This document shows, piece after piece, positions 5,265 to 25,940 of a stretch of 64,000 nt of DNA. The notes under the pieces are model-generated. The model was given only the letters and a program-made list of their open reading frames with translations, did not search any database and had not been told where the DNA came from. This DNA is from Coriobacteriia bacterium (GTDB lineage Bacteria; Actinomycetota; Coriobacteriia; Anaerosomatales; SLCP01), in the NCBI GenBank assembly GCA_030603745.1, contig JAUVXE010000007.1, positions 43,392 to 107,391 on the forward strand, written 5' to 3'. The position numbers and the translations under genes are program-made. Every line of letters begins with the position of its first letter. The stretch's first letter is position 1.

Positions 5265-8200
5265 CTACCGCTCGTAGGTCCGTGGCGCCGCGTGGCAGCC
5301 GGCGGCCGCACATGAACCGCCGGTGGCGGCGTGCGCGTACCCGAGCCCCCCGCGGATCAGGTGGTACTCCGTGGGGCTCCCGTGACTCACGTGGCACGCC
5401 TCGCACCCGATCCCGAGCCCCGACGCGCCCCCGCCGTGCAGCTCGTGCAGCTCACCGGCCACCTGGTCGCGGAACCCGCTTCCAGCCACGCCTTCACGGT
5501 AGACGTCGCGACGGTGGCAGTCGTAACAGAGCAGCGCGTCCTCGGCGGGGCGCGTCGCGAGGAAGCCCCCGCGCAGCAGCGGCGCGGCGGGGCTGACGTG
5601 CGGACCGGCGGCCTCGGTAGGCGCGGCGGCGTTGCCGTGGCAGTCGACGCAGTAGAGCACCGAGTCGACGCTCCAGCCCGCCTCGAAGGTGACCGGCGCG
5701 TTCTCGGCGGTCGCCGAGGGGCCGAACGTGGCATGGACGGAGAGGTTGCCCTCGTCGACCTCGGCGGCGATGTCGCGCGGCGAGCCGCCCCACCCTGCCG
5801 AGGCGTGGCACTTGAAGCAGAGCTGGTACTCGTGGTCGATGCCCTCCACGAGCTGGTCGGTCGCGCTGACGCCCCAGGTGCCGGCGATCAGGCCGTAGGC
5901 CGCCGGCGCGCTCGCGGCATCAGCGGTCATCGCGTGCACGTTGTGGCAGTCGACGCACTCGGCGTGGCGAGCGAACCCGGCCTCCTCGGCGGAGTCGTGG
6001 GCACCGGGGATCGCGCTCGCCGGGTGGCGGCTGCGGCCCACGGCCCCGAGGTCCGCCACCGCGAGCGCGGGCGTGCCGCCCGCCATCTCGGTCCCTCCCG
6101 CCCAGCGGGTATCCACGATCTCGAGCGCGGTCGACGAGCCGTCGATCGCGAGCACGTGCACCGCCGGGGTCACGGACTGCCCGGCGACCTCCGACAGCAC
6201 GCCGGCGCCCGCCGCGATCAGCTGGACGGTGCCGTCGCCGTTCACGTCGCCGACGGCGAGCGAGCTCGTCACCGCACGCGCGCCCGTGGGCACCGGGCTG
6301 CCGAACGCGACCCCGTCGGCCTCGAACACCACGACCCCGTTCTGGCCGGTCTCGCTGCGCATCGCCACGCCGATCCCGGTCGAACCGCCGGGCAGGAACG
6401 CGCCGACCGCGGTGTCCCATGCCGAGGAGCCTCCGGGCGTGAGCGTGGCATCGATGGACGCGAGCTCGCTGCCCGCGGCGCTGATGATCGAGACGGTCCC
6501 GGTGGTCTCGCCGGAGTTCGCGTAGACGATCTCGTTGGCCGCCGGGGTCGCGGACCAGACGTTGCCCACCGAGGGGCCCCTCGGGGCACGGCCGGTGGCG
6601 TACGGGCCCTCGACCACGAGCTGGCCGGGCGTGACGCCCGACTCGCGGATCACGCGCACCTCGCCGGGCTGGGTCTCGTCGGCGGTGAGCGAGGTGACCA
6701 CCAGCGAGCGACGCGCGCCGCCGAGGTCACCCGCGGCGAGGCCCGAGGCGTTGAGGCCGACACCCACCGGCCCCGCGACGCGGTCGAACTTCTCAAGGAT
6801 GTCGTCGAAACGGTAGATGGTCAGGTGGCTCGCGCCGCTCCCCTCGGTGCTGACGACCGCCACCTCGACGGTGCCGCCGGCCGCGAAGTCGCCGACCGCG
6901 AGGACCGAGGCCGCCGCGGTCTCCTCGATGCTGTGAGCCGTGGTCGCCAGGCCGGCGAGGTCGTCGAAGCGCGCGACCCGAAGCAGGGGTGCCGCGGGGT
7001 CGGCGACGACGAGTTCGAGGGTGCCGAGACCGTCGATGTCACCTGCCGCGAGCGCGCCGGAACGATAGCCGGAGAGGTAGCGCCGGGGCCCTTCGAGAGC
7101 CCGGGGGGCGGCGGTCCCGCGCTCCTGCGTGTAGACGTGCAGGGCGCTGTAGGCGAGCGGCAGGCGCTCGGGGTCCCAGGAGACGAGAAGCTCCGCGCCC
7201 TCCTCGCCGGGCTCGTAGGGGCGCACGCCGATGGAGGCCATGTCGACCACGCCGTCCGATGCGGCGAGCGCGGGGTTGTGGCAGCCGTAGCAGAGCTCAC
7301 GGCCCTCGACCTCGGCGAGCTTGGGCACCAGGCCGCCGTCACCGTCGTCGACACCCATGGGGTTGTGGCAGTTCTGGCACTCGCCGGCGGCCCGCGTGGT
7401 CTCCTCGGAACCGGTCCACTCGGCGCTGACCGCGACGCTCACGCCCGAGAGGCCGTGGATCGAGTCCTCGTACGGGCCGTCGCCCCCATAGGTGACGAGC
7501 GCCTCCTCGTGGCAGCCGTAGCACAGCGTGCGCGGCGAGGCCGGGTCGACGGTCCAGGTCGCGGGAGCCGATGGGGGCAGGAGCTCGGCGCGGATGAGCG
7601 GCGCGATGTCCGAACCGTGGGATGCGTGGCAGGCCGAGCAGGTGATCTCCGTGCCCGACGCCGGGCTGGCGATCCGGTCCGCGTGCGCGGTCTGCGCGTA
7701 CACGTCGAGCCCGCCGAAGCGGTTGTCCTCGGCGGTGCGCGATTCGAAGTGGCAGGTAGCGCAGTACTCCTCGCCCTGATAGAACGCGGTGCCGTCCGAG
7801 GTGAACGCGCGGAGCAGGCGTGCGAAGGGCTGCTCGGTCACGGGGTCCTTCTCGGCGCCGTGCGCGTCGTGGCAGGAGCTGCACTGCTTGGGCGAGGGCC
7901 CGTAGGCCGAGGGATCGGGCGCCATCGAATGGACCGAGGAGCGCAGCAGCTCGCCCTGGACGTCGAGCACCGAGCCGAGGCCGTCGACCCCGTGGCAGGT
8001 CAGGCAGAGCGCCTGGTCACCGGTGTCGGACGGCTGCGCGACGATCAGCGCCGAACCGGTGGTCTCCCACGAGCCGGCCATCGGGTACGACACCACGCCG
8101 GGGGCCGTGTGGGTGCGGTGACACATCGCGCAGGCGTCGGGCCCGTCCTCGGGGCTGACGTGGGGCGCGTCCGAGGCGAGCGAGGCGGCGGGGGCGACGA

Positions 8201-8306
8201 GCAGCATGGCGAAGACGGCAGCGCCGAGAGCGACGCGCCATCGCACACCCCGATACCCCGTGCCGGTTCGTCCCGCGAGCGGGGACGCGACTCGACCCAA
8301 CGTCAT
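5265..8306 (-). CDS. Secreted 14-heme c-type cytochrome with central FG-GAP/VCBS-like beta-propeller insert
   Basis: By my count, 13 CxxCH motifs plus a C-terminal CAAAGCH (CX4CH). Eight lie N-terminal and six C-terminal of a roughly 400-aa heme-free region. That region carries repeated GD(I/F/L/V)xxxG...(V/L)V motifs: AAGDIDGLGTLELVVAD, VGDFAAGGTVEVAVVS, AAGDLGGARRSLVVTS, VGDVNGDGTVQLIAAG. A signal peptide is present (AVFAMLLVAPAASLA). ATG 8306 has a GGAAG RBS; the track start is TTG 8312. Confidence 0.85.
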   Translation of the reverse strand: MTLGRVASPLAGRTGTGYRGVRWRVALGAAVFAMLLVAPAASLASDAPHVSPEDGPDACAMCHRTHTAPGVVSYPMAGSWETTGSALIVAQPSDTGDQALCLTCHGVDGLGSVLDVQGELLRSSVHSMAPDPSAYGPSPKQCSSCHDAHGAEKDPVTEQPFARLLRAFTSDGTAFYQGEEYCATCHFESRTAEDNRFGGLDVYAQTAHADRIASPASGTEITCSACHASHGSDIAPLIRAELLPPSAPATWTVDPASPRTLCYGCHEEALVTYGGDGPYEDSIHGLSGVSVAVSAEWTGSEETTRAAGECQNCHNPMGVDDGDGGLVPKLAEVEGRELCYGCHNPALAASDGVVDMASIGVRPYEPGEEGAELLVSWDPERLPLAYSALHVYTQERGTAAPRALEGPRRYLSGYRSGALAAGDIDGLGTLELVVADPAAPLLRVARFDDLAGLATTAHSIEETAAASVLAVGDFAAGGTVEVAVVSTEGSGASHLTIYRFDDILEKFDRVAGPVGVGLNASGLAAGDLGGARRSLVVTSLTADETQPGEVRVIRESGVTPGQLVVEGPYATGRAPRGPSVGNVWSATPAANEIVYANSGETTGTVSIISAAGSELASIDATLTPGGSSAWDTAVGAFLPGGSTGIGVAMRSETGQNGVVVFEADGVAFGSPVPTGARAVTSSLAVGDVNGDGTVQLIAAGAGVLSEVAGQSVTPAVHVLAIDGSSTALEIVDTRWAGGTEMAGGTPALAVADLGAVGRSRHPASAIPGAHDSAEEAGFARHAECVDCHNVHAMTADAASAPAAYGLIAGTWGVSATDQLVEGIDHEYQLCFKCHASAGWGGSPRDIAAEVDEGNLSVHATFGPSATAENAPVTFEAGWSVDSVLYCVDCHGNAAAPTEAAGPHVSPAAPLLRGGFLATRPAEDALLCYDCHRRDVYREGVAGSGFRDQVAGELHELHGGGASGLGIGCEACHVSHGSPTEYHLIRGGLGYAHAATGGSCAAAGCHAAPRTYER

Positions 8307-8386: not shown

Positions 8387-9967
8387 TCACGTTCCCCGAG
8401 GGACAGGCGAATCCTGCCCGTCCTCACCGTCCCTGCCGCCCCGCGGGGGCCGTCTGCGCCCCTCCGTCTCGCCGGGGAGGAGGAACTCCTCGGCGAAGGA
8501 ACGGGCGTCGTAGACGTCGAGCCCGCGTGCCCTGCCGATGACCTGCAGAGTGGGGTCGCCCGTGAGGAGCGAGCGCGTCCGGAGCGCGAGCGTGAGCGTC
8601 TCCGCCTGGTCGGGATCGAGGCCGTAGGTGCGCCCCACGATCGAGACGTCCGGACGCGAGATCTCACGCTCCTCGAGCGGCGGCAGGCCGGGGAACGCCT
8701 CCGGCACCACCGCGGAGGCCGGAGCCGCGACGAGCCGGACCCTTCCCCACCGGGCGCGACGCCCGGCGAGAAGGTCGCGCAGCGCGGGCAGGGCCGGTCC
8801 GCTCACCGCGACGGTCACCGCCCGCAGGTCGAACAGGAGCAGCAGGGGCGCGCCGAACAGCAGGAACGCCGAGAGCGCGGCGAGCAGGCCCGGTCCTCCC
8901 GGCCACAGGGTCAGCATGCCCGCACGTGCGGCCCCGTCCCACTCCCACGCTTGCACGCGCGCGTTGCCGGTGTCCGCGATCCACGCGACGCCCCCGGCGA
9001 CCGCGACGTCGTTCGGGAAGGCGAGCTGCCCGGCCGCGCCCCCCGGCTCGCCGAGGCGCGCGACCTCGCTCCCGCTCTCGGAGACGAGCACGACCTGGTG
9101 CGAGAAGGCATCGGCGAGCGCGAAGTAGACCGGGGCGCCGGGCTCGGCCATCACCACGTCGAAGCCGCGCACGAGCCGGCCGAGCGGCAGCGAGCGCACC
9201 TGCTCGCCCTCGCCGTCGAACTCCACGAGCCGGCGGTTGTTGCTGTCCGCGATCCACACGCGCCCGCCGAGCGCCTTGACCGCGTTGGGATAGTCGAACC
9301 CGTCACCGGCGTCGGGGGCGCCGGTCTCCTCGGCGGAGCGCGGCAGCACGCCGAGGACCTCGCCGTCGCGGGCCAGGTGCCAGACCCGGTGCGGGCCGGA
9401 GACGTCGGTGACGTAGAGCGTGCCGTCGTCGGCGACATCGACCGCGAGCGGCGCCCAGAGGGGGTCGGGCACCGGCGTGGTCTCGAGCGAGGGGGTGATC
9501 GTCTCGACGAACGAGCCGGTCGCCAGGTCGAACGCGAGCACCGCCGAGAGCGCGCGGTCGGTCACGTAGAGCTCGCCGACCCGCTCGTTGGCGGCGAGGT
9601 AGAGCGGCACCTCGAGCTCCGTCTCGCCGAGGGGCTCCTCGGCGGCGCCGTCGATCCGGAACACGGCGACCAGCCCCGCGAGGGAGTCGCCAACGTAGAC
9701 GCGGTCGTCGGCGACGGTCACGGAGAGCGGGCGCAGCAGTGCCGGGTCGCCCGTCCGCGGGAGAGAGAACGCGTAGGCGGGCGGCGTGGGCCGTCCGGCG
9801 GCGTCGGGGCGCGGCGTGATCGGTCCGCCGAGGGCGCGGAGCACATCGGGGACGAGCCCCGCCAGGCCGAGGAGTGCGAGCAGGACGACGGCGATATGGC
9901 GCGCCTGCCGTCTGCGCCGGTATGCGCGCACGGTTCGCGTGCTCGGACGATCGCTGCGCTTCGGCAC
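8387..9967 (-). CDS. Membrane-spanning NHL-repeat beta-propeller protein with conserved cytoplasmic C-terminal domain (paralog 1)
   Basis: 526 aa. The order is an N-terminal TM (IAVVLLALLGLAGLV), then NHL-like blades (VYVGDSLAGLVAVF, LYVTDRALSAVLAF, LYVTDVSGPHRVWHL, VWIADSNNRRLVEF, AWIADTGNARVQAW). A second TM follows (LLAALSAFLLFGAPLLLLF), then a roughly 150-aa C-terminal domain shared with the 18695..20239 protein. Confidence 0.8.
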   Translation of the reverse strand: MPKRSDRPSTRTVRAYRRRRQARHIAVVLLALLGLAGLVPDVLRALGGPITPRPDAAGRPTPPAYAFSLPRTGDPALLRPLSVTVADDRVYVGDSLAGLVAVFRIDGAAEEPLGETELEVPLYLAANERVGELYVTDRALSAVLAFDLATGSFVETITPSLETTPVPDPLWAPLAVDVADDGTLYVTDVSGPHRVWHLARDGEVLGVLPRSAEETGAPDAGDGFDYPNAVKALGGRVWIADSNNRRLVEFDGEGEQVRSLPLGRLVRGFDVVMAEPGAPVYFALADAFSHQVVLVSESGSEVARLGEPGGAAGQLAFPNDVAVAGGVAWIADTGNARVQAWEWDGAARAGMLTLWPGGPGLLAALSAFLLFGAPLLLLFDLRAVTVAVSGPALPALRDLLAGRRARWGRVRLVAAPASAVVPEAFPGLPPLEEREISRPDVSIVGRTYGLDPDQAETLTLALRTRSLLTGDPTLQVIGRARGLDVYDARSFAEEFLLPGETEGRRRPPRGGRDGEDGQDSPVPRGT

Positions 9968-9998: not shown

Positions 9999-10877
9999 CT
10001 ACTGTCCGGTCGACGCCCTCGCCACGGCGATCAGCGCGTCCCGGTGCTCAGCCGGGTTGCTCGACGAGGTCGAGACCTCGATCAACACCAGGATAGCGCC
10101 GTCGGGGACGGCGACCACCGCGAGACCGTCGCGCGTGCCGAAGTAGGCGTCCTTGGTGCCGACCTTCACGTTCTGTCCGTTGACCGAGTAGTAGGTCCGG
10201 ACCCGCTCGTCCACGCGGCGCTTCACCATCTCGGCGTCCTGGAACTGCTCGACCTCGACCGCGAGGCGTCCCATCTTCCCGCTCGACTCAGGGAGATAGT
10301 CCCTGAACAGGGCGAAGGGGTCGGAGTAGATGCGCTGGCCCACGAATCCGGGGAGGCGGTCGGGGATGTAGTTGACGAGGTTCGCGATGGGGCCCACCGG
10401 CAGTCCGGTATCGTCGCCCGGCGGGGTGGCGCCCGGCGTCTGACCGCCGGTCTGGCCGCCGCTACCGGGGGTCGATGCCGGCGGTGTGGTCGCGCCGGCC
10501 GTCGAGCCGGTCTTGGCGCGCACGTCGGCGAGCAGGGTGCCCGTGTCGCGGTAGGCGCCGTCGCTCGCGGCGATCTCGGCGAGCGCGCGCTCGGCGGCCT
10601 CGAGGTCGCCCTCGGCGATCGCGTCGAGCGCCTCGGCGTAGAGCGCGGCGAGTTTGGTGTGGAGATCGCACGTGATGACCTCGGTGGTCACGCCATGGTC
10701 GGCGACCTGGTCGACCGGGACCTCGATCTCCTCGGTGGTGTCGGAGACGATCTCGCCCTGGGTGCAGATCACGACCTCACCGGTCTGGACGGTGACCATC
10801 TGCTTCCGGCAACCGGGAACGACCGCCAGTCCGGCCACGAGCGCGAGAACGAGTACGAGCTTCCAGATGTGCCTCAT
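9999..10877 (-). CDS. Lipoprotein of unknown function
   Basis: Real gene inside the artefactual 9999..12005 ORF. ATG 10877 follows an AGGAGG RBS. A lipobox is present (LVLALVAGLAVVPGC), as is a Thr/Pro/Gly linker (GATTPPASTPGSGGQTGGQTPGATPPG). Its start overlaps the upstream stop by 4 nt (ATGA). Confidence 0.75.
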   Translation of the reverse strand: MRHIWKLVLVLALVAGLAVVPGCRKQMVTVQTGEVVICTQGEIVSDTTEEIEVPVDQVADHGVTTEVITCDLHTKLAALYAEALDAIAEGDLEAAERALAEIAASDGAYRDTGTLLADVRAKTGSTAGATTPPASTPGSGGQTGGQTPGATPPGDDTGLPVGPIANLVNYIPDRLPGFVGQRIYSDPFALFRDYLPESSGKMGRLAVEVEQFQDAEMVKRRVDERVRTYYSVNGQNVKVGTKDAYFGTRDGLAVVAVPDGAILVLIEVSTSSSNPAEHRDALIAVARASTGQ

Positions 10878-12424
10878 CGATCCTGACCTCCTGCGGTACC
10901 CGCTGATGCGTCGGTGCCCGCCGTGTGAGCGAGCATGCGGCGTGCCGAGATCCAGGCGAGCGCGCATGCCGCAAGTGCCAGGGCCGCAAGCTGCGCCGGT
11001 GCCGGAACCGGCGTGAACACTATCGTCGCATACTCGGACCCGTAGTCCTGCTGTACCTGGGGCGGAATCCACCTCATCCACACATGCAGGGGGGTGAACG
11101 CGAGTGACGCGTGGCCTCCCAGCGCCGTCAGGGCGCCGAGGAGACCCGCGAGCGCCTGAGTGCGGGTCGGCGACCCCACCGCGGCGGCGATCGCCACGCA
11201 CGCGACGCTGAACGCAAGCCAGCCTCCCACCGTCTGGACGCCGAGCATCCGGAAGTCTGCGGCGAAGTCCCCGCCCCCGTCGAGCGTCGCCCGCACCGCC
11301 ACTTCGACACCGGGGGACGCGAACGCGACCAGCGCCGAGGCCGCCGCGAGCGACGCGAGAACGAGCGAGAGATGCGGCAGCGGCGCGCGAGCCGGGCGGT
11401 CCGCGCTCCTCGCCGAGTGCCGCCCCGAGCCTCCCGGAACGACGAGCAGGACTACCGCGATCACGATCAGGACGCTCGCCCATCCGGCCGCATCGACCAG
11501 GATCGGCCGCGGGCCGAAGACGCCGGTCGCCTCCTCGACGAAGAGCAGGCTCGTGATCAGCGGCACGGCGAGCATCCAGGCGGCGCCCGCGCGCCGTGGG
11601 CCGGCGTGTATCGCGACGTAGAGCGAGAGCGCGAGCAGCAGCGCACGGCTCGCGGCCGCGGGCAGCACGGACGCGTCGATGAGCGACGCGGAGTCCCATC
11701 CGGCCGCGGGAAGCGCCCATGCGAGCGCGGAGACCAGCGTGCCGACGCCGGAGAGCGTATAGACGAGCGCCGGGCGGTGATCGCGGGCCACGTACACGGC
11801 GACCAGGACCGAGAGCGCCCAGGCGAGCCCCGCGACCACGAACGCGACCTCCTGGGAGGTGTGGGCGACGAAGAGGGAGAGCGAACTCGGCCGCTCCCAG
11901 TTGCCGAGGATCCCCGCGGTGCCCACGACGGCGAGCAGCGCCGCCGACAGGGGCCCGAAGCGACGCTGGCGAAGCGCGGCGCCGAGCACGAGCAGCGCGC
12001 CCCACACGCTCGTCGTCCAGAACGCGACGACGGTGCCGGGCGGCGAATCGGAGTACCTGCTCAGCGCGACGAGCGCCGGCGCGAGCGTCCCGCCGAGCGC
12101 CCCCGCACCGAGAAGCGCTATGGCCCGCGCCCGACCGAGTGACGCGAGCACGCCGCGCCCGGGGAGCCCGCCCATCAGGAAGAGGAGGACCGCCGTGAAC
12201 ACGGCGGTCGCGAGCACGAGCGCGGGGTCCTCGACGAACGGAGTGACGGCCGTCTCGAACACGAAGGTGGCCGCGGCGGCCAGCGCGAGAAGGACCCAGG
12301 CGACGGCGAGCACCACGGTCGAGGGTCGGGGGAGCCGGGTGCGTGCGGATGCGGCAGCAGGGTCAGCCACCGCGGACGTAGGGGAAGGGCCGGGCACTGC
12401 CCGGCCCTTCCCTCGAGTCCACAT
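10874..12424 (-). CDS. Polytopic membrane protein, DMT/EamA-like N-terminal half
   Basis: About 516 aa and almost entirely hydrophobic helices, at least 10 by eye. An EamA-like stretch reads LGGTLAPALVALSRYSDSPPGTVVAFWTTSVWGALLVLGAAL. I chose ATG 12424 because the track start 12469 would overlap the upstream cytochrome gene. The RBS is weak, so the start is uncertain. Confidence 0.65.
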   Translation of the reverse strand: MWTRGKGRAVPGPSPTSAVADPAAASARTRLPRPSTVVLAVAWVLLALAAAATFVFETAVTPFVEDPALVLATAVFTAVLLFLMGGLPGRGVLASLGRARAIALLGAGALGGTLAPALVALSRYSDSPPGTVVAFWTTSVWGALLVLGAALRQRRFGPLSAALLAVVGTAGILGNWERPSSLSLFVAHTSQEVAFVVAGLAWALSVLVAVYVARDHRPALVYTLSGVGTLVSALAWALPAAGWDSASLIDASVLPAAASRALLLALSLYVAIHAGPRRAGAAWMLAVPLITSLLFVEEATGVFGPRPILVDAAGWASVLIVIAVVLLVVPGGSGRHSARSADRPARAPLPHLSLVLASLAAASALVAFASPGVEVAVRATLDGGGDFAADFRMLGVQTVGGWLAFSVACVAIAAAVGSPTRTQALAGLLGALTALGGHASLAFTPLHVWMRWIPPQVQQDYGSEYATIVFTPVPAPAQLAALALAACALAWISARRMLAHTAGTDASAGTAGGQDR

Positions 12425-18345: not shown

Positions 18346-18420
18346 TCATCTGTCTCGCCTCCCTTACCCCGTACACCGATGGGACGGACCCCATTGCCGG
18401 GAGGTCCGCCACAGCACCAG

Positions 18421-18530
18421 TCTCCTTTCCAAGGTCCGGAAGGACGGGAGGCGCCAGGGTTTCCCCGGACACCCTATCGGCCGCGGCGCCATGGCTTTCG
18501 CGGTAGGCGTCCGGGGCTCGGAGACGATGT
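18421..18530 (-). promoter_or_regulatory. Moco/Tuco-type riboswitch aptamer candidate in the 5' leader of the fdnG-like operon
   Basis: The mRNA reads CUCCGAGCCCCGGACGCCUACC...CCGAUAGGGUGUCCGGGGAAACCCUGGCGCCUCCCGUCC...GGAAAGGAGA. It shares five ordered sequence blocks with the tupA leader at 36403..36510. Closing helix: UCUCC...GGAGA. Confidence 0.6.
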
Positions 18531-18576
18531 TCCATTTTCACGGTCCGCGGGACGTTGCCGGTCGATCCCGGGACCC

Positions 18577-18592
18577 TGTAACAATTGTTACA
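18577..18592. promoter_or_regulatory. Perfect 16-bp palindromic operator TGTAACAATTGTTACA (site A)
   Basis: The palindrome is perfect. It lies 15 nt downstream of the predicted -10 box, at roughly +9..+24. Related copies occur at 26076..26091 and 33648..33663. Confidence 0.6.
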
Positions 18593-18607
18593 ATACGCTC
18601 ACTCGCA

Positions 18608-18636
18608 AGATTATCCCGACCGCCCGACCCTGTCAA
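18608..18636 (-). promoter_or_regulatory. Sigma-70/SigA-type promoter for the fdnG-like/omcS-like operon
   Basis: The minus strand reads TTGACA-gggtcgggcggtcggga-TAATCT, a consensus -35, a 17-nt spacer and a good -10. It sits in the only low-GC intergenic stretch upstream of the riboswitch. Confidence 0.6.
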
Positions 18637-18694
18637 CACTCAGCGGACAGGCGGTCGAGACCTTGTCATCCTTCATTCCCCACACTCCGGCGGC

Positions 18695-20239
18695 CTACTC
18701 CCGGCCACCCTGCTCGGCGTCGCTCAGGTACTGCTCGATGAAGAGCCGCGCGTCATAGGCGTCCACGCCCAGCGCGCGCGCCGCGACGGCCAGCGCGGCG
18801 TCCTCGGTGCAGAGCCGCTTGGTGGTCCGGGCGAGCACGAGCATCAGTGCCTCGTCCCGGGTCACCCCGACCCGCTTCATCAGGTCGCGCACGTCGGACT
18901 CGGAGTGCTTGACCAGCGTGATCATCTCGTCGAGACGCACCCCGTCGAGCTCACGGCCGGCGTAGGTCGCGGCATGCTCCTCGGGAGCGATCCAGCGCCA
19001 GCGCTTGCGCGACGCGGCCTCGGCGAGCAGTCCGGCCTCCGCCATCGCCACCAGGAAGTCCTCGGTCACCGCGAACTTCCGGCGGCGCAGGAGGAGCAGG
19101 AGGGGCAGCAGAAGGAGCGGGCTCAGGCAGAGCGCCCACTGGGAGGGCGTCTCGGGCAGCGCGTCGGGCACGAGCGGCACCGGCTCGGGCCAGCCCCACA
19201 CCTGCACCTGATGGTTGAGGCGGTCGGTCACGAAGATCCGCGTGCGGCGGTCGATCGCGAGGTCGTTCGCGTAGCGGAACTGCCCGGGGCCGATCCCGCT
19301 CTGGCCGAACCCGGTGATCCGCTCACCGCCTGACTGGTAGATGTCGACCTGGTGCGCGAGCGCGTCGGCGATGTAGATGCGGTCCTCGGCGTCGATGTCC
19401 ATGCCGCGCGGGATACCGGAGGTCCGCATGATGCGGTCGAACTGCCCGTTCAGGTCGAAGACCTGGACGCGGCGGTTGTTGCTGTCGGATACGTAGATCT
19501 CGTCACCCATGACGAGCACGTCGTTGGGGAAGTAGAAGCGCCCGGGGAGTTGCGAGATCTCGTCGGCCTGTGCGAACGCGCCGAACCGCCGGAGCTCCTG
19601 ACCGTTCTCGTCGAAGACGATGACCTGGTGGAGCTCCACGCGACCGACATCGGTGACGTAGAGGTTGTCGTTCTCATCGAACCCGAGGCCGAGAGGGCCC
19701 CACAGGCGCGCCTCCTCAGGATCGGCGGGGACGACCTTGCGCAAGAAATCGCCATCGAGCGTGAACACGTAGATCGCGCGGTGGCGGCGGTCGGTGACGA
19801 AGAGCTCGTCTTTGCTGTTGATCGCGAGGAAGACCGGGGTGCCGAGCTCCGTGTTCTCGCCGTCGGCGATCTCGTTGAAGGTGAACAGGTAGTCGCCGTC
19901 CACCGTGTAGACACGCACGACGCGCGACGCGGAGTCGGTGACGTAGACCCGGTCGTCACGGCTGACCTCGACGCCGATCGGCGCGGTGAGCGCGTTCTCT
20001 CCGGCGGGACCCGAGATCGAGTAGAGATAGCGCGGCGGATCGACCTGCTCGTCGAAGGTCCGCCCGAGGCCGGGGATCGGCAGGGTGCGGTTCACCGAGA
20101 AGTAGTAGATGGAGTAGAGCACGAGCGCGAGGAGCGCCAGCAGAAGCGCGAGGGCGACCCACTTCTTCCACGCGGCACGGCCGGCGTCCGCGCGGCCGAA
20201 CGAGGCCCGTTCCGGTTGCGTCTGATGATCCATCGACAC
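18695..20239 (-). CDS. Membrane-spanning NHL-repeat beta-propeller protein with conserved cytoplasmic C-terminal domain (paralog 2)
   Basis: 514 aa with an N-terminal TM (WVALALLLALLALVLYSIYYF). NHL blades follow: VYVTDSASRVVRVY, LFVTDRRHRAIYVF, LYVTDVGRVELHQVIVF, IYVSDSNNRRVQVF, IYIADALAHQVDIY, IFVTDRLNHQVQVW. A second TM (LCLSPLLLLPLLLLL) precedes a C-terminal domain ending ...LCTEDAALAVAARALGVDAYDARLFIEQYL. Confidence 0.85.
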   Translation of the reverse strand: MSMDHQTQPERASFGRADAGRAAWKKWVALALLLALLALVLYSIYYFSVNRTLPIPGLGRTFDEQVDPPRYLYSISGPAGENALTAPIGVEVSRDDRVYVTDSASRVVRVYTVDGDYLFTFNEIADGENTELGTPVFLAINSKDELFVTDRRHRAIYVFTLDGDFLRKVVPADPEEARLWGPLGLGFDENDNLYVTDVGRVELHQVIVFDENGQELRRFGAFAQADEISQLPGRFYFPNDVLVMGDEIYVSDSNNRRVQVFDLNGQFDRIMRTSGIPRGMDIDAEDRIYIADALAHQVDIYQSGGERITGFGQSGIGPGQFRYANDLAIDRRTRIFVTDRLNHQVQVWGWPEPVPLVPDALPETPSQWALCLSPLLLLPLLLLLRRRKFAVTEDFLVAMAEAGLLAEAASRKRWRWIAPEEHAATYAGRELDGVRLDEMITLVKHSESDVRDLMKRVGVTRDEALMLVLARTTKRLCTEDAALAVAARALGVDAYDARLFIEQYLSDAEQGGRE

Positions 20240-20245
20240 TCCTCG

Positions 20246-21256
20246 TCAGTCTCTCAGGCGTTCGACGGCCGCCGAGGCGGTCTCGTCGTTCGGGTCGATC
20301 TCGAGCACCTTGCGCCACGTCACGAGCGCGGACTCCGGGTTCCCGAGCTCCTCGTGCAGCTCGGCGGCGATGCGACCCGCCTCCGCGAGGCCCCGGTCGA
20401 GGGCGAACGCGATGCGAGCCTCGGCAAGGGCGCCTTCCGGGTCGGCGGGGCGCAGCGAGCGGGCGCGCTCCAGGCGCTCGGTCGCGCTTCCCTCGGCGGC
20501 GATCTTCGCGAGCTCGTCGCGGGGCTCGTCGCGGCCGGGTGGCGCGTGGTCCGCCGAGGTGCGGAAGTGCTCGGCGGCGCCGGCGATGTCGCCCTCCTCG
20601 AGCAAGAGCAGGCCGAAGTCGTAGTTCGCCTCGGGCATGATCGGGTCGAACATGATGGCGTTCTGCAGGTAGAGGCGCTGATTGGAGTCCGAGCCGAGGC
20701 GCCCGTAGGCGACCGAGAGCGCGTAGTGCGTGTCCGAGGCGCTCCGGCGGATCCGCAGCGCCTCGCGCAGATAGGCGACGGCGTCCTCGTAGCGGCCGAG
20801 CTCGATGTAGGTCACGCCGAGCTGGTAGTAGGCGACCTCGAGGCGGGTGTCGAGCATCGCGTACTCGCTGCCCCCGAGCTGGTCGATGACGGTGAGCCAG
20901 TACTCCTCGGCGGTCTCCCACTCGCCCTGGTACATCGCGACCAGCGCGAGGCCGGAGAGCGCGCTCGGATGGTCGGGGTGGATCTCGAGCGCGGCGTTGA
21001 ACTGCTCGACCGCCTCGCGCAGCCGGCCGGACGCCGCGAGGGCCTCGGCGAGCAGGAGACGGAGCTCCGCGTCGTCAGGGTTCTCGCGGACGGCCTCGAT
21101 GAGGTTGTCGACCGCACGCGACGCCGGCTGCGCACGGCGTTCCTGCAGCTGGTAGGCGGTCACCGTGTAGGCGAGGTAGATGAGTGCGACGAGCAGCAGG
21201 GCGACGACGGACTTGAGCGCCACGTCGAGCCAGCGTATGTCGGATCCGAATCTCAC
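20246..21256 (-). CDS. Membrane-anchored TPR-repeat protein
   Basis: 336 aa with an N-terminal TM (VVALLLVALIYLAYTV). It contains multiple TPR-like A/L/Y-rich 34-mers, for example AEALAASGRLREAVEQFNAALEIHPDHP and YQLGVTYIELGRYEDAVAYLREAL. Confidence 0.8.
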   Translation of the reverse strand: MRFGSDIRWLDVALKSVVALLLVALIYLAYTVTAYQLQERRAQPASRAVDNLIEAVRENPDDAELRLLLAEALAASGRLREAVEQFNAALEIHPDHPSALSGLALVAMYQGEWETAEEYWLTVIDQLGGSEYAMLDTRLEVAYYQLGVTYIELGRYEDAVAYLREALRIRRSASDTHYALSVAYGRLGSDSNQRLYLQNAIMFDPIMPEANYDFGLLLLEEGDIAGAAEHFRTSADHAPPGRDEPRDELAKIAAEGSATERLERARSLRPADPEGALAEARIAFALDRGLAEAGRIAAELHEELGNPESALVTWRKVLEIDPNDETASAAVERLRD

Positions 21257-21306: not shown

Positions 21307-22902
21307 CTAGAACCGCATGTCGGTATGGCAGCGGCGACACAGCTGTGAACCGGGCCAGGGCGCGATCTGGATGTTGCGGAGATCGAGCGCGCCGTGGCAG
21401 TCATAACAGATACGCAAGTCGTGTGCCTGAGTCTCGAACTGGTGCACACCTACATCACGAACACGCGCGATCGTGAAGCCGACGTGGCAGTCGTCACAGA
21501 TGTAGGGACGGCCCACGCGCTCTTCGACCTCGAAGTGCACGGCGTGGGTGACGAGCGCCATGTTCTGGATGTCGGTAGGCGGTTCGGTGCGCATCTCCTC
21601 GTGGCAGTCGACGCAGTTGGGCTGGAGGAGCTCGGTGCTCCGCAGGCCCTGGTGGTGGCACTCCTGGCACGACGCGCGGTCGGTGTGGCAGACCTTGCAG
21701 TCGTCGCTCGGGTAGCCGTTGGCCGCGTGCCGCGCGAGCCAGTCGGTCGGGTGCGGCATGGGCGTCTGATGGCACCGCTCGCACGACGCCGAGGTATGGC
21801 AGATCGAGCACGCCCCTTCCCCGCCGAGGAACCCGGCCCCGTGCTCCTGCATCCACTCGGGCGTCAAGTGGTCGTCGGGGACGATCTGCTCGCTCGTGGA
21901 GCCGTCGGCCAGCACCCGCTCTCCCCGGTGACACTCCGAGCACAGCGACGACGCGTGGCACATGGTGCACTCGATGATCTTCTCGTTGGCCGGCTCCGCG
22001 TGCTCCCGGGCGATGAACGCGGGCGTGTGGTCGGCCGGCATGAGCTCGAAGTCGGCGGTGTGGCAGGCGAGACACTCCTCGGTGGCCACCTCGCCCTGGG
22101 CGGCGTGCTGGAGGCTGTGGCAGCGGTAGCACGAGAGCATGTCGGGGATGACGGTCCCGTCGGGGCTGTGGGGGAACGACTCGTGGCACGCCTGGCACCG
22201 GTAGTCGCGCGCGATGTGGACGCCGTGCGTGAAGATGAGGCCGGGCTGCTCGCCCGCGTCGATGTCCGGGTGGCAGAAGACGCACTGTCCCATCGTCGCC
22301 TCGCCCGTGGGGTCGACGGTGACCGACGGCCGCGGCTCGGGCACGGGGATCGTGCGCAGGTAGACCGGGGGCACGGGCGCGGTGTCGAGCCCGAGCTCGC
22401 GGTGGCAGGAGTCGCAGTCGAGGCGCGCGTCGTGGCAGAGCATGCACTCGTTCGTGCCGCCCCGCTCCACAGCGAGCGCGTGGGGCTCCTCGGCCCAGGT
22501 CTCGACGTGGGTCGCGGGCCTGAGCTCGAAGGCGGGCGTGTGGCAGTCCTCGCACGTGCCGGTCGCCAAGATGCCCTGGGGGCCGTGCACGAGGCCGTGA
22601 CAGGCGAAGCAGGTCTGCATCGGCGGGCTGTAGGTGTTGCCCGCCTCGTGGGCCGGGCGCACGTGGCACGACGTGCACGCGACCGTGAGGTGCGCCCCGT
22701 GGCTGAAGATGAGCCCGGGGGAGCGGGACTCGGCGATACGCGCGTGGCAGGCGGCGCAGTTCGACGCCCTGACCTCGGCGGTCAGGTCGATCTCACCCGT
22801 GGTCTCGCGGCCGATGCCGGAGAGCGGGCCCGCAAAGGCGAAGGCGGTCGCCAGGAGGACGACCGCCGCGCCTGCTATGAGAGCCTTGCGCGTGCGCTGC
22901 AT
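21307..22902 (-). CDS. Membrane-anchored 20-heme c-type cytochrome built from repeated multi-heme modules
   Basis: 531 aa with 20 CxxCH motifs by my count. Four are closely paired doublets (CMLCHDARLDCDSCH, CTMCHASSLCSECH, CSICHTSASCERCH, CKVCHTDRASCQECH). An N-terminal anchor or signal is present (ALIAGAAVVLLATAFAFA). Confidence 0.9.
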   Translation of the reverse strand: MQRTRKALIAGAAVVLLATAFAFAGPLSGIGRETTGEIDLTAEVRASNCAACHARIAESRSPGLIFSHGAHLTVACTSCHVRPAHEAGNTYSPPMQTCFACHGLVHGPQGILATGTCEDCHTPAFELRPATHVETWAEEPHALAVERGGTNECMLCHDARLDCDSCHRELGLDTAPVPPVYLRTIPVPEPRPSVTVDPTGEATMGQCVFCHPDIDAGEQPGLIFTHGVHIARDYRCQACHESFPHSPDGTVIPDMLSCYRCHSLQHAAQGEVATEECLACHTADFELMPADHTPAFIAREHAEPANEKIIECTMCHASSLCSECHRGERVLADGSTSEQIVPDDHLTPEWMQEHGAGFLGGEGACSICHTSASCERCHQTPMPHPTDWLARHAANGYPSDDCKVCHTDRASCQECHHQGLRSTELLQPNCVDCHEEMRTEPPTDIQNMALVTHAVHFEVEERVGRPYICDDCHVGFTIARVRDVGVHQFETQAHDLRICYDCHGALDLRNIQIAPWPGSQLCRRCHTDMRF

Positions 22903-22911: not shown

Positions 22912-24165
22912 TTACCCCCGGCCTCTCAGTGCGCGCCACCAGCGGATCACCGGGTTGGCGCTCTGCACCTCGTACCGTCCGTGGATCAGCGAGGCGCTCT
23001 GCTCGATGAACGACTCGCCCGAGCCCCAGTGGCAGCCCTCGGTGCCGCAGGTGTCCACCGCGTTGACGGGGTAGACCATCGAATCGGGGTCGGCCACCGC
23101 CCTCACGTCGTGCGAACCGTGGCAGTCCCAGCACGACGGCGCGTCGGCGGCGCCGCGCTTGTAGGCCCGGCCGTGGTAGTAGTCGTCGTAGTTCTCCCAC
23201 TCGGCCGCGTGGCACACGCCGCACATCTGCTCGGAGGCGAAGTGGAGTTGCCGACGGGCCGCCTCGGTGTCGAGCCTCGCGATGGAGTGGCCGCCGTGGC
23301 ACGAACCGCAGGTGGCCGAGGAGTAGTCCCCCTCGGCGATGAGCTCGGCGTGGATCGAGCCGGCGTACTCCTCGGCGGAGGTCGAGTGCTCGTGGCAGGC
23401 GGCGCAGGCCAGTCCGGCGTTCACGCGCCAGACCGGCGTGGCGTCGGGGCGGTCGTGGTAGTTGAAGTCCACGTGGCACTCGACGCAGGTGTTGTCGCGG
23501 TGCGCGGTGCGGTCGAGCCCGGTCACGTGGAGCGAGCGGGTCGCCCCGCCGTCGGACTTGGCGAGGTTCGGGTCGCCGTGACAGGCGAGGCAGCCGTTCT
23601 CCACGTCGTAGGTGAACTCCTCGGCGGTGCGCCACTCGACGCCGACCGCCCGGTGGCACTCGTCGCAGTCGGTGCGCGTGTGGCACATCATGCAGCGGGT
23701 GCGCAGCTCGGTCAGCGAGGGCTCGACGTGCGGCGTCTCGGCCCAGTCGGGCGTGTGGCTCTCCGGCCGCATGCGTCCGGTATAGGCGCCGTGGCACTTC
23801 TCGCACTCGCCGGTCGCGATGGTGCCCATTGGCCCGTGGCGCAGGTCGTGACAGTTCCAGCAGTCCTTCATGGTGGGCTTCACCGTGCCGGCCGGGCTGT
23901 GCGGGAAGACCGTGTGGCAGCTGCTGCACGCGTAGAGCATGTGCGACGCGTGACGGAAGATGACCCGCGGGTCCTTTCCGTCCGCGATGGTGCCGTGACA
24001 GACCTTGCAGGTGCTGCCGTAGACCGGCGCACCCGTGTCGACCTCGACCGTGCCCCCCTGGGCGAACGCGGGTGCGGCGAACGCGAGCATCACGATGCAC
24101 GCGAGCGCTGCCGCCACGATCGCCGAGACGTGGATGCCGGTCCGCGCCTCGATCCTTAGGATCAT
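22912..24165 (-). CDS. Secreted 13-heme c-type cytochrome
   Basis: 417 aa with 12 CxxCH motifs plus CGTEGCH (CX4CH). The signal peptide is AAALACIVMLAFAAPAFA. The first six hemes form the same module as in the 20-heme protein. The C-terminal part is homologous to the 7-heme protein (YDDYYHGRAYKRGAADAPSCWDCHGSHD). Confidence 0.9.
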   Translation of the reverse strand: MILRIEARTGIHVSAIVAAALACIVMLAFAAPAFAQGGTVEVDTGAPVYGSTCKVCHGTIADGKDPRVIFRHASHMLYACSSCHTVFPHSPAGTVKPTMKDCWNCHDLRHGPMGTIATGECEKCHGAYTGRMRPESHTPDWAETPHVEPSLTELRTRCMMCHTRTDCDECHRAVGVEWRTAEEFTYDVENGCLACHGDPNLAKSDGGATRSLHVTGLDRTAHRDNTCVECHVDFNYHDRPDATPVWRVNAGLACAACHEHSTSAEEYAGSIHAELIAEGDYSSATCGSCHGGHSIARLDTEAARRQLHFASEQMCGVCHAAEWENYDDYYHGRAYKRGAADAPSCWDCHGSHDVRAVADPDSMVYPVNAVDTCGTEGCHWGSGESFIEQSASLIHGRYEVQSANPVIRWWRALRGRG

Positions 24166-24213
24166 CGTCCCCTACCCTTCCTGTCAGCTGAACGGGCGTC
24201 CCCTCGCCCGGAC

Positions 24214-25098
24214 CTACCTTCCGAAGATCCCGGCGATCGCCGAACGCACCCGCTGGAACAGGGAGTAGAGCGGGTTCGCCTCGAGCACGTCGCGCTGCCC
24301 GTGGATCAGCTCCGCGTAGGCGACGTAGTCCACGTTGGGATCGGTGTGGCACCCGGGAGCGGTGCACGTCTCGGTGAGCCTCGTCTCATGGACCATCGAG
24401 TCACGGTCCGAGGACGGGCGGATGTCGTGCCAGCCGTGGCAGTCCCAGCACGCCGGGGCGTCTTCGGCGCCCCGCTTGTAGGCGCGGCCATGGTAGTAGT
24501 CGTTGTAGCTCTCCCAGTAGTCCTCGTGGCAGCGGCCGCAGACCTCCCAGCCGTTCGCGTGAAGCGCGGCGCGGCCCTCATCGTCGATCTCGACGATGTC
24601 GTGCGCGCCGTGACAGCTGCTGCAGATCGGCTTCTCCGCCGCGTCCGGACCCGGCACGCCGTTGCCGTTCCCGTTGACCTCGATGCGGTGGACCCCCTGT
24701 CCGACCTCGAAGTTCTGGTCCTGGTGACAGTTCTTGCAGGCCGACCCGGCCTCGCGGCGCCAGTCCTGGGACGCCGTGGTGTGCGGCGCGGTGAAGGCGA
24801 AGTCGATGTGGCACCCGGCGCACTGCACGGCGGCGTGCGGACCGGCCTCGAGCTCGGCCGCGTCGACGTAGTAGCTCACGAGACGGTCCTCCCGCAGGCG
24901 GATGAGGTTCTCATCGCCGTGGCAGACGAGACAGCCGGCCTTGGCCGCCGTGGGCAGCGTGAAGTCGACGTCGTAGCCGTCGAACTCGATGGTGTGGGTC
25001 CCGACCGTGCTCTCTTGCGCGTATGCCAGTGCGGGAAGCGCGATCAGGACGGCGAGGACCGTCAGCGTGATCGTCAGTGTCCGGTGCGCTGGTGTCAT
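24214..25098 (-). CDS. Secreted 7-heme c-type cytochrome, partner of the b-type cytochrome
   Basis: Uses the internal ATG 25098 of track ORF 24214..25338. The signal peptide is LTVLAVLIALPALAYA. There are 6 CxxCH motifs plus CTAPGCH. Its start overlaps the cyt b stop by 4 nt (ATGA). Confidence 0.85.
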   Translation of the reverse strand: MTPAHRTLTITLTVLAVLIALPALAYAQESTVGTHTIEFDGYDVDFTLPTAAKAGCLVCHGDENLIRLREDRLVSYYVDAAELEAGPHAAVQCAGCHIDFAFTAPHTTASQDWRREAGSACKNCHQDQNFEVGQGVHRIEVNGNGNGVPGPDAAEKPICSSCHGAHDIVEIDDEGRAALHANGWEVCGRCHEDYWESYNDYYHGRAYKRGAEDAPACWDCHGWHDIRPSSDRDSMVHETRLTETCTAPGCHTDPNVDYVAYAELIHGQRDVLEANPLYSLFQRVRSAIAGIFGR

Positions 25099-25940
25099 TC
25101 TGCCTCTCCGGTCGAGGGGCTCAGTGCCGGGCTCCCGTGGGCCTCTCCGTGTCCGTGGGAGTCGTGGTGGTCGGCCCCGCCCAGTCCGAAGAAGCTCTGG
25201 AAGGCGGGGAAGTCCTCCGTCATCGACAGGTAGGCGTGCACCGTGGTGAGGATGATGAACAGCCAGTTGATGATGTAGTGGGCGGTACGCGCGTACCATC
25301 CGGCGAGGTCGGTCGAGCCCACGAGCGCTCCGAGCCACCAGCTCAGCAGGACCTCGCGCGGGCTGTAGCCGAAGATCATCGGCGTGGCCACGAGCGCGAA
25401 GCCCGTGTAGGCCTGCAGGATCATCAGCGGCACGAAGAGTGTGTAGGTGCCCTTCTGCATCACGTTGTACTTCCCGAGGTGTGGCTTGGAGGACTTCACG
25501 AAGATGTAGTACAGCACTACTTTCGGCGCGGTCACTATGTCTTCCTTCGTGATCGCGAACTCTTTGTAGTCACGCTGCCGCGAGAAGAAGGCGTACCACA
25601 AGCGCCACACGAGGTTGATCGTGACGATGATCATGAAGACGTAGTGCACGTAGCGCATCGGGGTACGGCCACCGTCGAAGAACGGGAACCGGATGTACAT
25701 CCCCGAGATGCCGAGCGCGAACATCGAGAAGACGTGCTGGAAGTGGAGGAACTTCGGGAGGAACGGGACGGGCGGTCCCTCGTGGTGGGGCCACTGCTTA
25801 CCGATGAAACGCTTCTTGACGCGTCCGGTGAGCACGTTGCCGATGAAGTGGCCGGACAGGCCGAGCACCACGACCACGTACAGGCTCGTGAAGACGACGT
25901 CCAGCCATACGTTGAACCCGGTCAGACTGATCTCCGACAC
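25095..25940 (-). CDS. FdnI/HydC-family membrane b-type cytochrome (putative menaquinol-interacting subunit)
   Basis: 281 aa and polytopic. It carries the family-typical GKYNVMQKGTYTLFVPLMILQAYTG (compare E. coli FdnI GKYNAGQK). Conserved His residues sit in TM helices (HFQHVF, YVHYVF, TAHYIINW, TTVHAYL). GTG start follows a GGGAGTAGGGG RBS. Confidence 0.8.
   Translation of the reverse strand: MSEISLTGFNVWLDVVFTSLYVVVVLGLSGHFIGNVLTGRVKKRFIGKQWPHHEGPPVPFLPKFLHFQHVFSMFALGISGMYIRFPFFDGGRTPMRYVHYVFMIIVTINLVWRLWYAFFSRQRDYKEFAITKEDIVTAPKVVLYYIFVKSSKPHLGKYNVMQKGTYTLFVPLMILQAYTGFALVATPMIFGYSPREVLLSWWLGALVGSTDLAGWYARTAHYIINWLFIILTTVHAYLSMTEDFPAFQSFFGLGGADHHDSHGHGEAHGSPALSPSTGEAE

Follow-up and report, generated by a model that had tools for sequence, protein, structure and literature searches.

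The window analysed here is a stretch of 64,000 nucleotides (nt), with a G+C content of about 70%, from contig JAUVXE010000007.1 of a Coriobacteriia bacterium. Between positions 5265 and 25940 it carries 13 co-directional genes on the minus strand, in which an exported formate dehydrogenase (FDH) is encoded among five multiheme c-type cytochromes, a cytochrome b and several accessory proteins. Members of the Anaerosomatales (OPB41) and Coriobacteriia related to them occur widely in communities of the deep subsurface, of sediments and of electrodes, and to our knowledge electron transfer from monoderm Actinomycetota to minerals is essentially uncharacterised. We hold with moderate confidence that the locus is a lineage-conserved extracytoplasmic electron-transfer cluster in which an inserted donor cassette would feed a cytochrome network, and it is probably by means of this cluster that formate or H2 is linked to iron minerals in these bacteria of the subsurface.

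The gene cluster and its donor slot

The 13 genes delimited by analysis of G+C content at the third codon position (GC3) and by translation are the following, in gene order (TM, transmembrane; aa, amino acids):

25095..25940, minus strand: cytochrome b of the HydC/FdnI type, at least three to four TM helices (PF01292, Ni_hydr_CYTB, E=6e-15)
24214..25098, minus strand: 7-heme c-type cytochrome (7h), 6 CxxCH and 1 CX4CH, N-terminal signal or anchor
22912..24165, minus strand: 13-heme cytochrome (13h), 12 CxxCH and 1 CX4CH (Cytochrome_C7, E=8.5e-17)
21307..22902, minus strand: 20-heme cytochrome (20h; Cytochrome_C7, c3_2, MtrC/MtrF II-IV domain)
20246..21256, minus strand: TPR protein with an N-terminal TM helix (Pfam and TM scan)
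18695..20233, minus strand: NHL1, with an NHL beta-propeller between two TM helices, followed by about 130 aa of cytoplasmic domain (PF01436, E=9e-23)
14522..18157, minus strand: FdhA, alpha subunit (1211 aa) of a FDH with Mo/W-bis-pyranopterin guanine dinucleotide, exported by twin-arginine translocation (Tat; TAT_signal, Molybdop_Fe4S4, Molybdopterin, Molydop_binding)
13647..14507, minus strand: FdhB, iron-sulfur subunit anchored by a C-terminal TM tail (Fer4_11)
12454..13641, minus strand: OmcS-family hexaheme cytochrome, 5 nt 3' of fdhB (profile against PDB)
10874..12316, minus strand: membrane protein of drug/metabolite transporter (DMT) fold with an extra C-terminal domain (AlphaFold2 (AF2) model, pLDDT 89.7; Foldseek)
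9999..10877, minus strand: putative lipoprotein, signal peptide ending in VVPGC, 4-nt overlap with the DMT-like gene
8387..9967, minus strand: NHL2, with TM helix, NHL propeller, TM helix and cytoplasmic domain (PF01436, E=1e-17)
5265..8306, minus strand: 14-heme cytochrome (14h), 13 CxxCH and 1 CX4CH, central non-heme domain of about 370 aa

The cytochrome b gene heads the upstream unit. From there the junctions are a 4-nt overlap (cytochrome b/7h), 48 nt (7h/13h), 9 nt (13h/20h), 50 nt (20h/TPR), 6-12 nt (TPR/NHL1), 537 nt (NHL1/fdhA), 14 nt (fdhA/fdhB), 5 nt (fdhB/hexaheme), 29-137 nt depending on the start codon chosen (hexaheme/membrane protein), a 4-nt overlap (membrane protein/lipoprotein), 31 nt (lipoprotein/NHL2) and about 80 nt (NHL2/14h). 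Ten of these 12 are 4-nt overlaps or gaps of at most 50 nt, the NHL1/fdhA and NHL2/14h gaps being the exceptions. A preliminary description of this DNA had reported 13 tightly spaced minus-strand genes with 57 CxxCH and 3 CX4CH motifs; the genes were recovered by GC3 analysis and translation, and a recount over the five cytochromes (6+1, 12+1, 20, 6 and 13+1) gave identical numbers. Pfam and NCBIfam also agreed with the identities proposed there for the cytochrome b, the multihemes, the TPR protein, both NHL proteins, the molybdoenzyme and the 4Fe-4S subunit. The 14-heme protein had been described as containing an FG-GAP propeller: its 14 heme motifs stand, whereas the FG-GAP match is weak (E=2e-4) and lies below the cut-off.

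All 13 proteins were mapped onto 80 loci around hexaheme homologues and two around FdhA homologues, which are designated here by L-numbers. The full order (7h/13h, 20h, TPR, NHL, FdhA, FdhB, hexaheme, DMT-like, lipoprotein, NHL and 14h) was found in about 20 Coriobacteriia loci, and since it recurs in about 20 other genomes at 40-80% amino-acid identity the gene order is not attributable to chance. The orthologues of the 20-heme cytochrome in related loci are 45-74% identical and those of the 14-heme cytochrome, located downstream, 35-52%, and the TPR gene is always 5' of the NHL gene. As judged from these comparisons, the core set formed by the cytochrome b, the 7-, 13- and 20-heme cytochromes, the TPR and TM-NHL proteins and the hexaheme is recurrent in Coriobacteriia and reduced in Chloroflexota.

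The slot between the NHL and hexaheme genes is occupied by FDH in 27 loci and by a hydrogenase in 17, and is empty in 16. Twenty-eight of the 28 close FdhA orthologues examined sit in a cytochrome cluster, so that the link between FDH and cytochromes drawn in the preliminary description is both physical and evolutionary. The hydrogenase cassette contains a [NiFe] small subunit (HydS) with a Tat signal and without a C-terminal membrane anchor, together with the large subunit (HydL), and there is no cytochrome b gene inside it. Because of both characteristics this hydrogenase would need a c-type acceptor. In the loci checked, the hexaheme gene lies 3-10 nt after the donor enzyme (10 nt after hydL in L040). 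Empty slots, where the hexaheme gene directly follows the NHL gene, are found in L006 and in most Chloroflexota, and the search of the gaps of the Chloroflexota loci for other donor enzymes yielded additional multihemes alone. The possibility that the hexaheme is an FDH-specific subunit was ruled out by its presence in loci lacking FDH. A conserved slot open to FDH or hydrogenase makes this cytochrome a specific candidate for direct redox partnership with the enzymes that oxidise H2 and formate.

The smallest unit, that of L083, comprises TPR, NHL, FdhAB, hexaheme, DMT-like and lipoprotein genes, with neither a cytochrome b nor another multiheme nearby. Tandem FDH and hydrogenase modules, each with its own TPR, NHL, operator and OmcS-like gene, are present in L026, in L047/L033 (same contig, DASXUP010000001.1) and in L082. 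Other arrangements were also observed. L024 has the order hydrogenase, OmcS-like gene and, downstream, FdhA, and in L054 (Ca. Geothermocultoraceae) the OmcS-like gene is upstream of FdhAB. The hydrogenase genes of L045 (6500-10000), a long-read metagenome-assembled genome (MAG), are broken into several frames; given the intact orthologues of, for example, L040, indels of the assembly look a better explanation than true pseudogenes.

The 537-nt gap between NHL1 and fdhA contains a promoter, a palindrome, a riboswitch aptamer for the molybdenum/tungsten cofactor (Moco/Tuco) and a terminator-like hairpin, and a second copy of the palindrome is found elsewhere in the window:

18608..18636, minus strand: donor-cassette promoter, TTGACA-17-TAATCT (sequence and alignment of loci)
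18577..18592, no strand assigned: operator palindrome TGTAACAATTGTTACA, perfect, conserved in orthologous loci
18406..18535, minus strand: Moco/Tuco riboswitch aptamer (RF01055, 56.3 bits against a gathering score of 36, model 1-135)
18291..18347, minus strand: terminator-like hairpin followed by the U-run UUUUCCUUUU, putative expression platform
33648..33663, no strand assigned: second operator copy TGTAACCATTGTTACA, one mismatch, about 62 nt 5' of the likely mobA-fdhD start

All three elements that the preliminary description had placed before fdhA (promoter, operator and riboswitch) are thus present. The promoter, as TTGAC(A/G)-17/18-TAnnnT, is conserved in 15 of the 16 aligned FDH and hydrogenase loci, and the palindrome, as GTAAC-N4-GTTAC (TGTAAC-N4-GTTACA), is found upstream of fdhA and hydS in related loci. 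The same promoter and operator precede both types of cassette and are absent from loci without one, which argues that the donor enzyme and its regulatory region form an exchangeable insert; the operon that received it, made of cytochrome, TPR, NHL and hexaheme genes, would be older. The riboswitch is located at the same place upstream of fdhA in seven of seven orthologous loci (58-68 bits). A generic promoter and terminator scan of 17900-18800 flagged nothing, since the -10 element is of the TAnnnT type and the hairpin loop exceeds the limit of the scan; the promoter was recovered by the alignment of loci and the hairpin by folding (18270-18545, z=-3.25), its role being presumptive.

The preliminary description had regarded the cytochromes as transcriptionally fused to the FDH. 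This is not supported, as a conserved promoter, operator, riboswitch and terminator-like hairpin belong to the FDH half itself. With a regulated promoter inside it, the cluster likely consists of at least two transcription units rather than one operon, and the riboswitch would tie expression of the FDH half to the availability of the Mo/W cofactor. The window contains two operator sites, against 0.01 expected, and the second lies between a transporter ATPase gene and mobA-fdhD. This distribution suggests one regulator acting over FDH, its maturation genes (fdhD-mobA) and, elsewhere, the hydrogenase cassette. The TGTAAC-N4-GTTACA operator and the Moco riboswitch provide a regulatory handle on the system.

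Concerning the host, the preliminary description had deduced a monoderm from a single surface protein:

40688-44869, minus strand: LPFTG-anchored surface protein, 1393 aa, with LPFTG at residue 1361, then GNLLGLIALAAAATIAGLAL and RRRAR

This protein has the LPXTG-type motif, the hydrophobic segment and the positive C-terminal tail of a sortase substrate. In addition, next to the cluster there is a gene for an L,D-transpeptidase that carries a peptidoglycan-binding domain, and the nearest hexaheme and FdhA homologues belong to MAGs labelled Coriobacteriia, Anaerosomatales or Actinomycetota. On these markers the host is a monoderm, as had been proposed, and an uncultured, Anaerosomatales-like member of the Coriobacteriia. 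Its exact sequence was encountered on a single NCBI contig and in one Logan assembly.

The hexaheme cytochrome and the formate dehydrogenase

The profile built from 27 homologues of the hexaheme cytochrome matched the OmcS structure 6EF8 in the PDB with E=8.6e-10. Residues 40-371 align with residues 8-371 of the 407 of OmcS, with five of the six heme motifs in register and the sixth at the C-terminus. The similarity appears by profile alone: the single-sequence PDB search with the hexaheme found nothing, and those with the 14- and 20-heme proteins gave nothing useful either. The CAGCHRAH motif, invariant in the family, aligns with CEGCHTMH of OmcS, whose second histidine, His16, ligates heme 5 of the adjacent subunit in the 2019 structures. 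The corresponding H47 is invariant in an alignment of the family, and exactly six CxxCH motifs and an N-terminal CxxCHxxH were present in all of the 120 closest homologues. When a library of 1.84 billion proteins clustered at the 50%-identity level was searched (E <=1e-3), the family amounted to 1289 clusters. On the profile evidence the 6-heme protein is a true, distant homologue of OmcS, as the preliminary description had supposed, and it extends the OmcS family to Gram-positive hosts.

The OmcS nanowire of Geobacter sulfurreducens and its osc companion cluster (Shen et al., 2025, cited in PMC12977616 and PMC13194489) resemble the present locus in the register of five of six CxxCH motifs, in the CxxCHxxH including the His16 position, and in having large multihemes, a beta-propeller protein and proteins of the membrane or channel type alongside. 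Propeller proteins likewise accompany the OmcE and OmcS nanowire genes in Geobacter relatives. The two systems differ in that the host here, a monoderm, lacks components of an outer membrane, its propellers belong to NHL proteins that are anchored by TM helices and have a domain in the cytoplasm, no PPIase was seen, and a donor dehydrogenase is encoded directly 5' of the hexaheme. Moreover, the similarity of the two cytochromes is detectable only at profile level, and polymerisation of the one described here is putative.

The best PDB matches of FdhA were the periplasmic W/Sec (selenocysteine) FdhA proteins of Desulfovibrio (9qm0, 1h0h and 6sdr; E about 1e-92). Its IEHQARI-U-HSSTV segment aligns with Sec192/His193 of D. 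vulgaris, and NALRGIHNVQGSTD (NALRG..NVQGSTD) aligns on the active-site arginine, Arg441 in D. vulgaris, these residue numbers being read from alignment coordinates. FdhA scored under the equivalog cut-offs of TIGR01553 (420 vs 814 bits) and NF041513 (386 vs 1400), although FDH models were still by far its best NCBIfam matches; the match splits into four stretches because of about 200 aa of insertions. With its TAT signal and the aligned U-H and Arg catalytic residues, the earlier identification as an exported Sec-dependent FDH is sustained. The insertions, which give FdhA some 200 aa more than its counterparts in Desulfovibrio and E. coli, are located at about 314-485, 570-670, 780-890 and 940-1066. 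They could possibly be involved in docking, and PF27730 is present in some FdhA orthologues.

The Sec UGA of fdhA is at 17522-17524. Directly 3' of it, at about 17479-17519, there is a hairpin resembling a Sec insertion sequence (15 bp, GGUCU loop, dG -27.4, z=-2.4), and the TGA is kept in 26 of the 26 FdhA orthologues from fetched loci. The decoding machinery is encoded in the same window:

52607..57641, minus strand: Sec machinery, comprising tRNA-Sec, SelB, SelA and a SelD-like protein

The hairpin, the conservation of the codon and the presence of selABD and tRNA-Sec all point to decoding of the in-frame UGA as Sec. A class-V aminotransferase of the cysteine desulfurase/selenocysteine lyase type and a PF11823 Se/S-carrier protein are encoded at 26143-27893 (minus strand), directly 5' of the cytochrome b gene; L082 (1-265) has this pair ahead of its own cytochrome b gene as well, so the linkage may be conserved. 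Proteins of the nitroreductase and DUF523/2-thiouracil desulfurase families adjoin tRNA-Sec (49445-51118, minus strand), and a weak DsrE-like open reading frame (56223-56561, minus strand) lies between selA and the selD-like gene. These three may represent further sulfur or selenium trafficking functions.

Genes for the supply of the metal cofactor are present as well: a MobA-FdhD fusion, MoeA, MobB, MoaA, a MOSC-domain protein and MogA/MoaB, in addition to an ABC transporter of the TupA type. The region 33683-36514 (minus strand) comprises this transporter and, preceding it, a second Moco riboswitch (36388-36514, 56 bits). The binding protein of the transporter matches PBP_like_2 (E=3e-45) far better than SBP_bac_11 (E=2e-15) and is therefore TupA-like, which hints at import of tungstate rather than molybdate and thus at a possible W enzyme in the FDH.

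In Desulfovibrio FdhABC3 and HynABC3, the donor enzyme gene is followed by a gene for a dedicated cytochrome c. The D. vulgaris FdhAB, FdhABC3 and HynABC3 enzymes, which include the closest solved structures, share with the present system the Tat-exported W/Mo-Sec FdhAB, the anchorless periplasmic-type [NiFe] hydrogenase (in the sister loci) and the dedicated multiheme c gene after each enzyme. The differences are an OmcS-family hexaheme instead of the tetraheme c3 as acceptor, the TM tail of FdhB, the greater length of FdhA, the monoderm host and the approximately 60 heme sites of the cluster.

A proposed route of the electrons

The cytochrome b would be the entry to, or exit from, the quinone pool. 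It reached 66 bits with TIGR02125, under the cut-off. CbcL of Geobacter is a cytochrome b of the HydC/FdnI type fused to a multiheme c domain, and the present pair resembles it in combining a PF01292 cytochrome b with a multiheme c, plausibly as a quinol/quinone-cytochrome c oxidoreductase. It differs from CbcL in being divided between two genes, with a c part of seven hemes, the likeness being drawn from architecture. As the pair stays with the cytochromes irrespective of FDH, it resembles a split CbcL and not FdnI.

This bears on a first alternative, which we consider quite improbable, namely a redox loop of the FDH-N type as in E. coli FdnGHI (1KQF): FdhAB would dock through its tail on the cytochrome b of the cluster and reduce menaquinone, and the cytochromes would be a separate quinol-oxidising outlet, with no direct contact between FDH and a cytochrome c. 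The Tat/Sec FdnG-like alpha subunit, the FdnH-like beta subunit with its C-terminal TM helix, kept in about 28 orthologues, and the presence of a PF01292 cytochrome b among the genes of the cluster fit this arrangement, and a redox loop would explain energy conservation. However, the cytochrome b gene is 7 kb upstream of fdhAB, coupled to the 7-heme gene, and it persists in L006 and L017, which lack FDH (it is also kept in L024). The gene in the position of the gamma subunit is that of the hexaheme, 3-5 nt after fdhB in the loci checked. Furthermore, in L083 there is no cytochrome b gene within 10 kb of those for FdhAB and the OmcS-like protein, and the hydrogenase that replaces FDH in the slot is anchorless, in a cassette devoid of cytochrome b.

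According to the reading that we favour, formate would be oxidised on the outer face of the membrane, H2 being the donor in the sister loci, and FdhB, or HydS in its place, would hand the electrons on to the OmcS-like hexaheme, which would be a dedicated partner as cytochrome c3 is in Desulfovibrio FdhABC3/HynABC3 and may polymerise like OmcS. From this hub they could reach the menaquinone pool through the split CbcL-like pair of cytochrome b and 7-heme cytochrome, and minerals, electrodes or partner cells across the wall by way of the 13-, 20- and 14-heme cytochromes, which together with the hexaheme would make up a network in the wall zone. Assembly, anchoring or cofactor supply would fall to the TPR protein, both NHL propeller proteins, the DMT-fold protein and the lipoprotein.

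Several points weigh against this proposal. The transfer from FdhB or HydS to the hexaheme is deduced from gene adjacency alone, and FdhB keeps a tail anchor like that of FdnH, whose docking site in E. coli is cytochrome b. No proton-motive force is generated if the donor is oxidised and the acceptor reduced outside alike, and the detour through menaquinone is assumed. As an external short circuit from formate to Fe(III) conserves no energy, either part of the flow would go through the quinone pool or the system would have another purpose, such as that of an electron sink or of electron uptake. Homology to OmcS is no proof of filament formation; the AF2 model of the hexaheme monomer (27-sequence alignment) had a pLDDT of 41.6, was unusable and was left out of the fold search, and polymerisation is not known for the OmcS paralogues of Geobacter (PMC12977616). 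Finally, the cluster of the cultured relative considered below is likened to this one by its published description, not by sequence.

That relative is Parvivirga hydrogeniphila Es71-Z0120, an obligate Fe(III) reducer on H2 or formate (Khomyakova et al., 2022, PMC9686372). Its cluster MCL4079376-90, of about 15 genes, contains multihemes of the quinol-oxidising and terminal-reductase types and a molybdopterin oxidoreductase annotated as FDH (MCL4079382-3), and was proposed by its authors as the determinant of Fe(III) reduction (PMC9686372). It also belongs to the Anaerosomatales/Coriobacteriia lineage, and its gene count and FDH position fit the present window; none of the top FdhA and hexaheme homologues is named Parvivirga. 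That paper, as we read it, reports no OmcS homology, Sec codon, riboswitch or operator, nor an FDH/hydrogenase exchange. An OmcS homologue, 28% identical, has been found in an anode-enriched Coriobacteriales MAG with 37 multihemes, which was the fourth most abundant genome of the anode biofilm (Arbour et al., 2020, PMC7399161). Two of our loci, L009 and L020, derive from MAGs of the HGW-Actinobacteria, in which many multihemes and [NiFe] hydrogenases were described (Hernsdorf et al., 2017, PMC5520028). Clusters combining NHL, TPR and multiheme proteins are known in Gram-positive iron reducers, including Dethiobacter (PMC10376724). Thermincola potens, Carboxydothermus ferrireducens and Dethiobacter alkaliphilus are, like our host, monoderms having multihemes with NHL/TPR proteins and a proposed wall-spanning path (PMC10376724). 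They differ in being Firmicutes, not Actinomycetota, and neither an embedded FDH or hydrogenase cassette nor an OmcS-family member was found reported for their clusters.

The statement of the preliminary description that no such system had been described was consequently overstated. Multiheme-based extracellular electron transfer (EET) in Gram-positives, the OmcS family and the pairing of a cytochrome c with a periplasmic FDH or hydrogenase were all known already. In full-text searches of the literature, no description was found of FDH/hydrogenase exchange beside an OmcS-family gene, nor of their shared operator or riboswitch control.

A second alternative is that the cytochromes form a hub of Desulfovibrio style in the wall zone, without an extracellular role, whose sole outlet would be menaquinone through the cytochrome b and 7-heme cytochrome, these acting as a Qrc-, Hmc- or Tmc-like pair feeding intracellular or membrane reductases. 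The succession of donor enzyme and cytochrome c genes parallels FdhABC3/HynABC3, the cytochrome b and multiheme pair heads the cluster, and Anaerosoma tenue, a sister strain with a similar multiheme inventory, does not reduce Fe(III) (PMC9686372). We nevertheless find this improbable: some 60 heme sites, among them those of an OmcS homologue and of 13-, 14- and 20-heme cytochromes with MtrC/MtrF domains, are excessive for a quinone-reducing hub, enrichment on anodes is seen for relatives, the cultured relative to which such a cluster is ascribed depends on Fe(III) reduction, and the cluster encodes no terminal reductase for soluble acceptors. An intracellular nitrite or sulfite reductase pathway was also considered and discarded, as searches of Pfam and NCBIfam gave no match to NrfA, HAO or sulfite reductase, and the similarity to NrfB/NrfH was weak and sub-threshold. 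The homology that would have spoken against the EET-type cytochromes of the preliminary description was therefore not encountered.

The flow could also be directed inwards, from a cathode, Fe(II), Fe(0), a partner cell or menaquinol to the exported FDH or hydrogenase, with formate or H2 produced outside; in the electron-sink variant, the menaquinol electrons would arise during fermentative or syntrophic growth. The W/Mo-Sec FdhAB enzymes of this clade (those of the PDB relatives named above) are reversible CO2 reductases, close relatives of the anode Coriobacteriales by 16S sequence were reported from a biocathode (PMC7399161), and electron uptake is known to be catalysed by extracellular hydrogenase and FDH (PMC4453541). 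Nonetheless, formate and H2 serve the cultured relative as donors with Fe(III), and formate made outside would be useless to an autotroph unless re-imported, and we regard this direction as very improbable.

If the favoured outward route through a polymerising hexaheme is carried further, an FDH or anchorless hydrogenase docked on an OmcS-type cytochrome within the Gram-positive wall would constitute enzyme-loaded "catalytic nanowires", with donors swapped as cassettes under one regulator, working in either direction between formate or H2 and a mineral, an electrode or a partner. This extension is speculative and rather unlikely. If true, such enzyme-to-wire coupling bears on bioelectrochemical conversion of CO2 to formate and on H2 catalysis. 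The locus provides in any case a conserved parts list, which includes the OmcS-family hexaheme, the quinone module, the propeller and TPR accessories, and the FDH-or-hydrogenase slot behind a shared operator.

Accessory proteins and neighbouring genes

NHL1 and NHL2 are paralogues with 32% identity over their full length. In both, the propeller is external and lies between the two TM helices. Both end in a conserved cytoplasmic C-terminal domain of about 130 aa, encoded at 18695-19150 in NHL1 (...GVDAYDARLFIEQYL) and at 8387-8850 in NHL2 (...GLDVYDARSFAEEFL), which has no match in Pfam and could be a trans-membrane signalling or anchoring element.

The membrane protein encoded after the hexaheme matched no Pfam or NCBIfam family. 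In the Foldseek search of its AF2 model against the PDB, its first approximately 310 residues matched the DMT structures 5y78, 6xbo, 5i20 and 7paf (probability 1.0; target TM-scores 0.6-0.7), these being the top matches. As modelled, the protein is DMT-like at fold level and not by sequence family, and at that level the label given to it in the preliminary description was right. The putative lipoprotein also had no match in Pfam or NCBIfam. Its gene and the DMT-like gene co-occur in FDH loci and in some hydrogenase loci; given their presence in the hydrogenase loci L023, L025, L033 and L035, a formate-specific function of the two was rejected.

Elsewhere in the window, a c-di-GMP-II riboswitch (RF03169, 60.5 bits) was identified at 44894-44981 on the minus strand, directly 5' of the gene for the LPFTG-anchored 1393-aa protein, whose domains are DUF7507, DUF11, SdrD_B and SpaA. 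A GGDEF-EAL protein is encoded at 57726-59093. This arrangement suggests c-di-GMP control of a giant adhesin. Additionally, a chemotaxis set comprising CheB, a CheY-like protein, a methyl-accepting chemotaxis protein and CheR is encoded at 1-4263 (minus strand), just downstream of the cluster and beyond a convergent L,D-transpeptidase gene.

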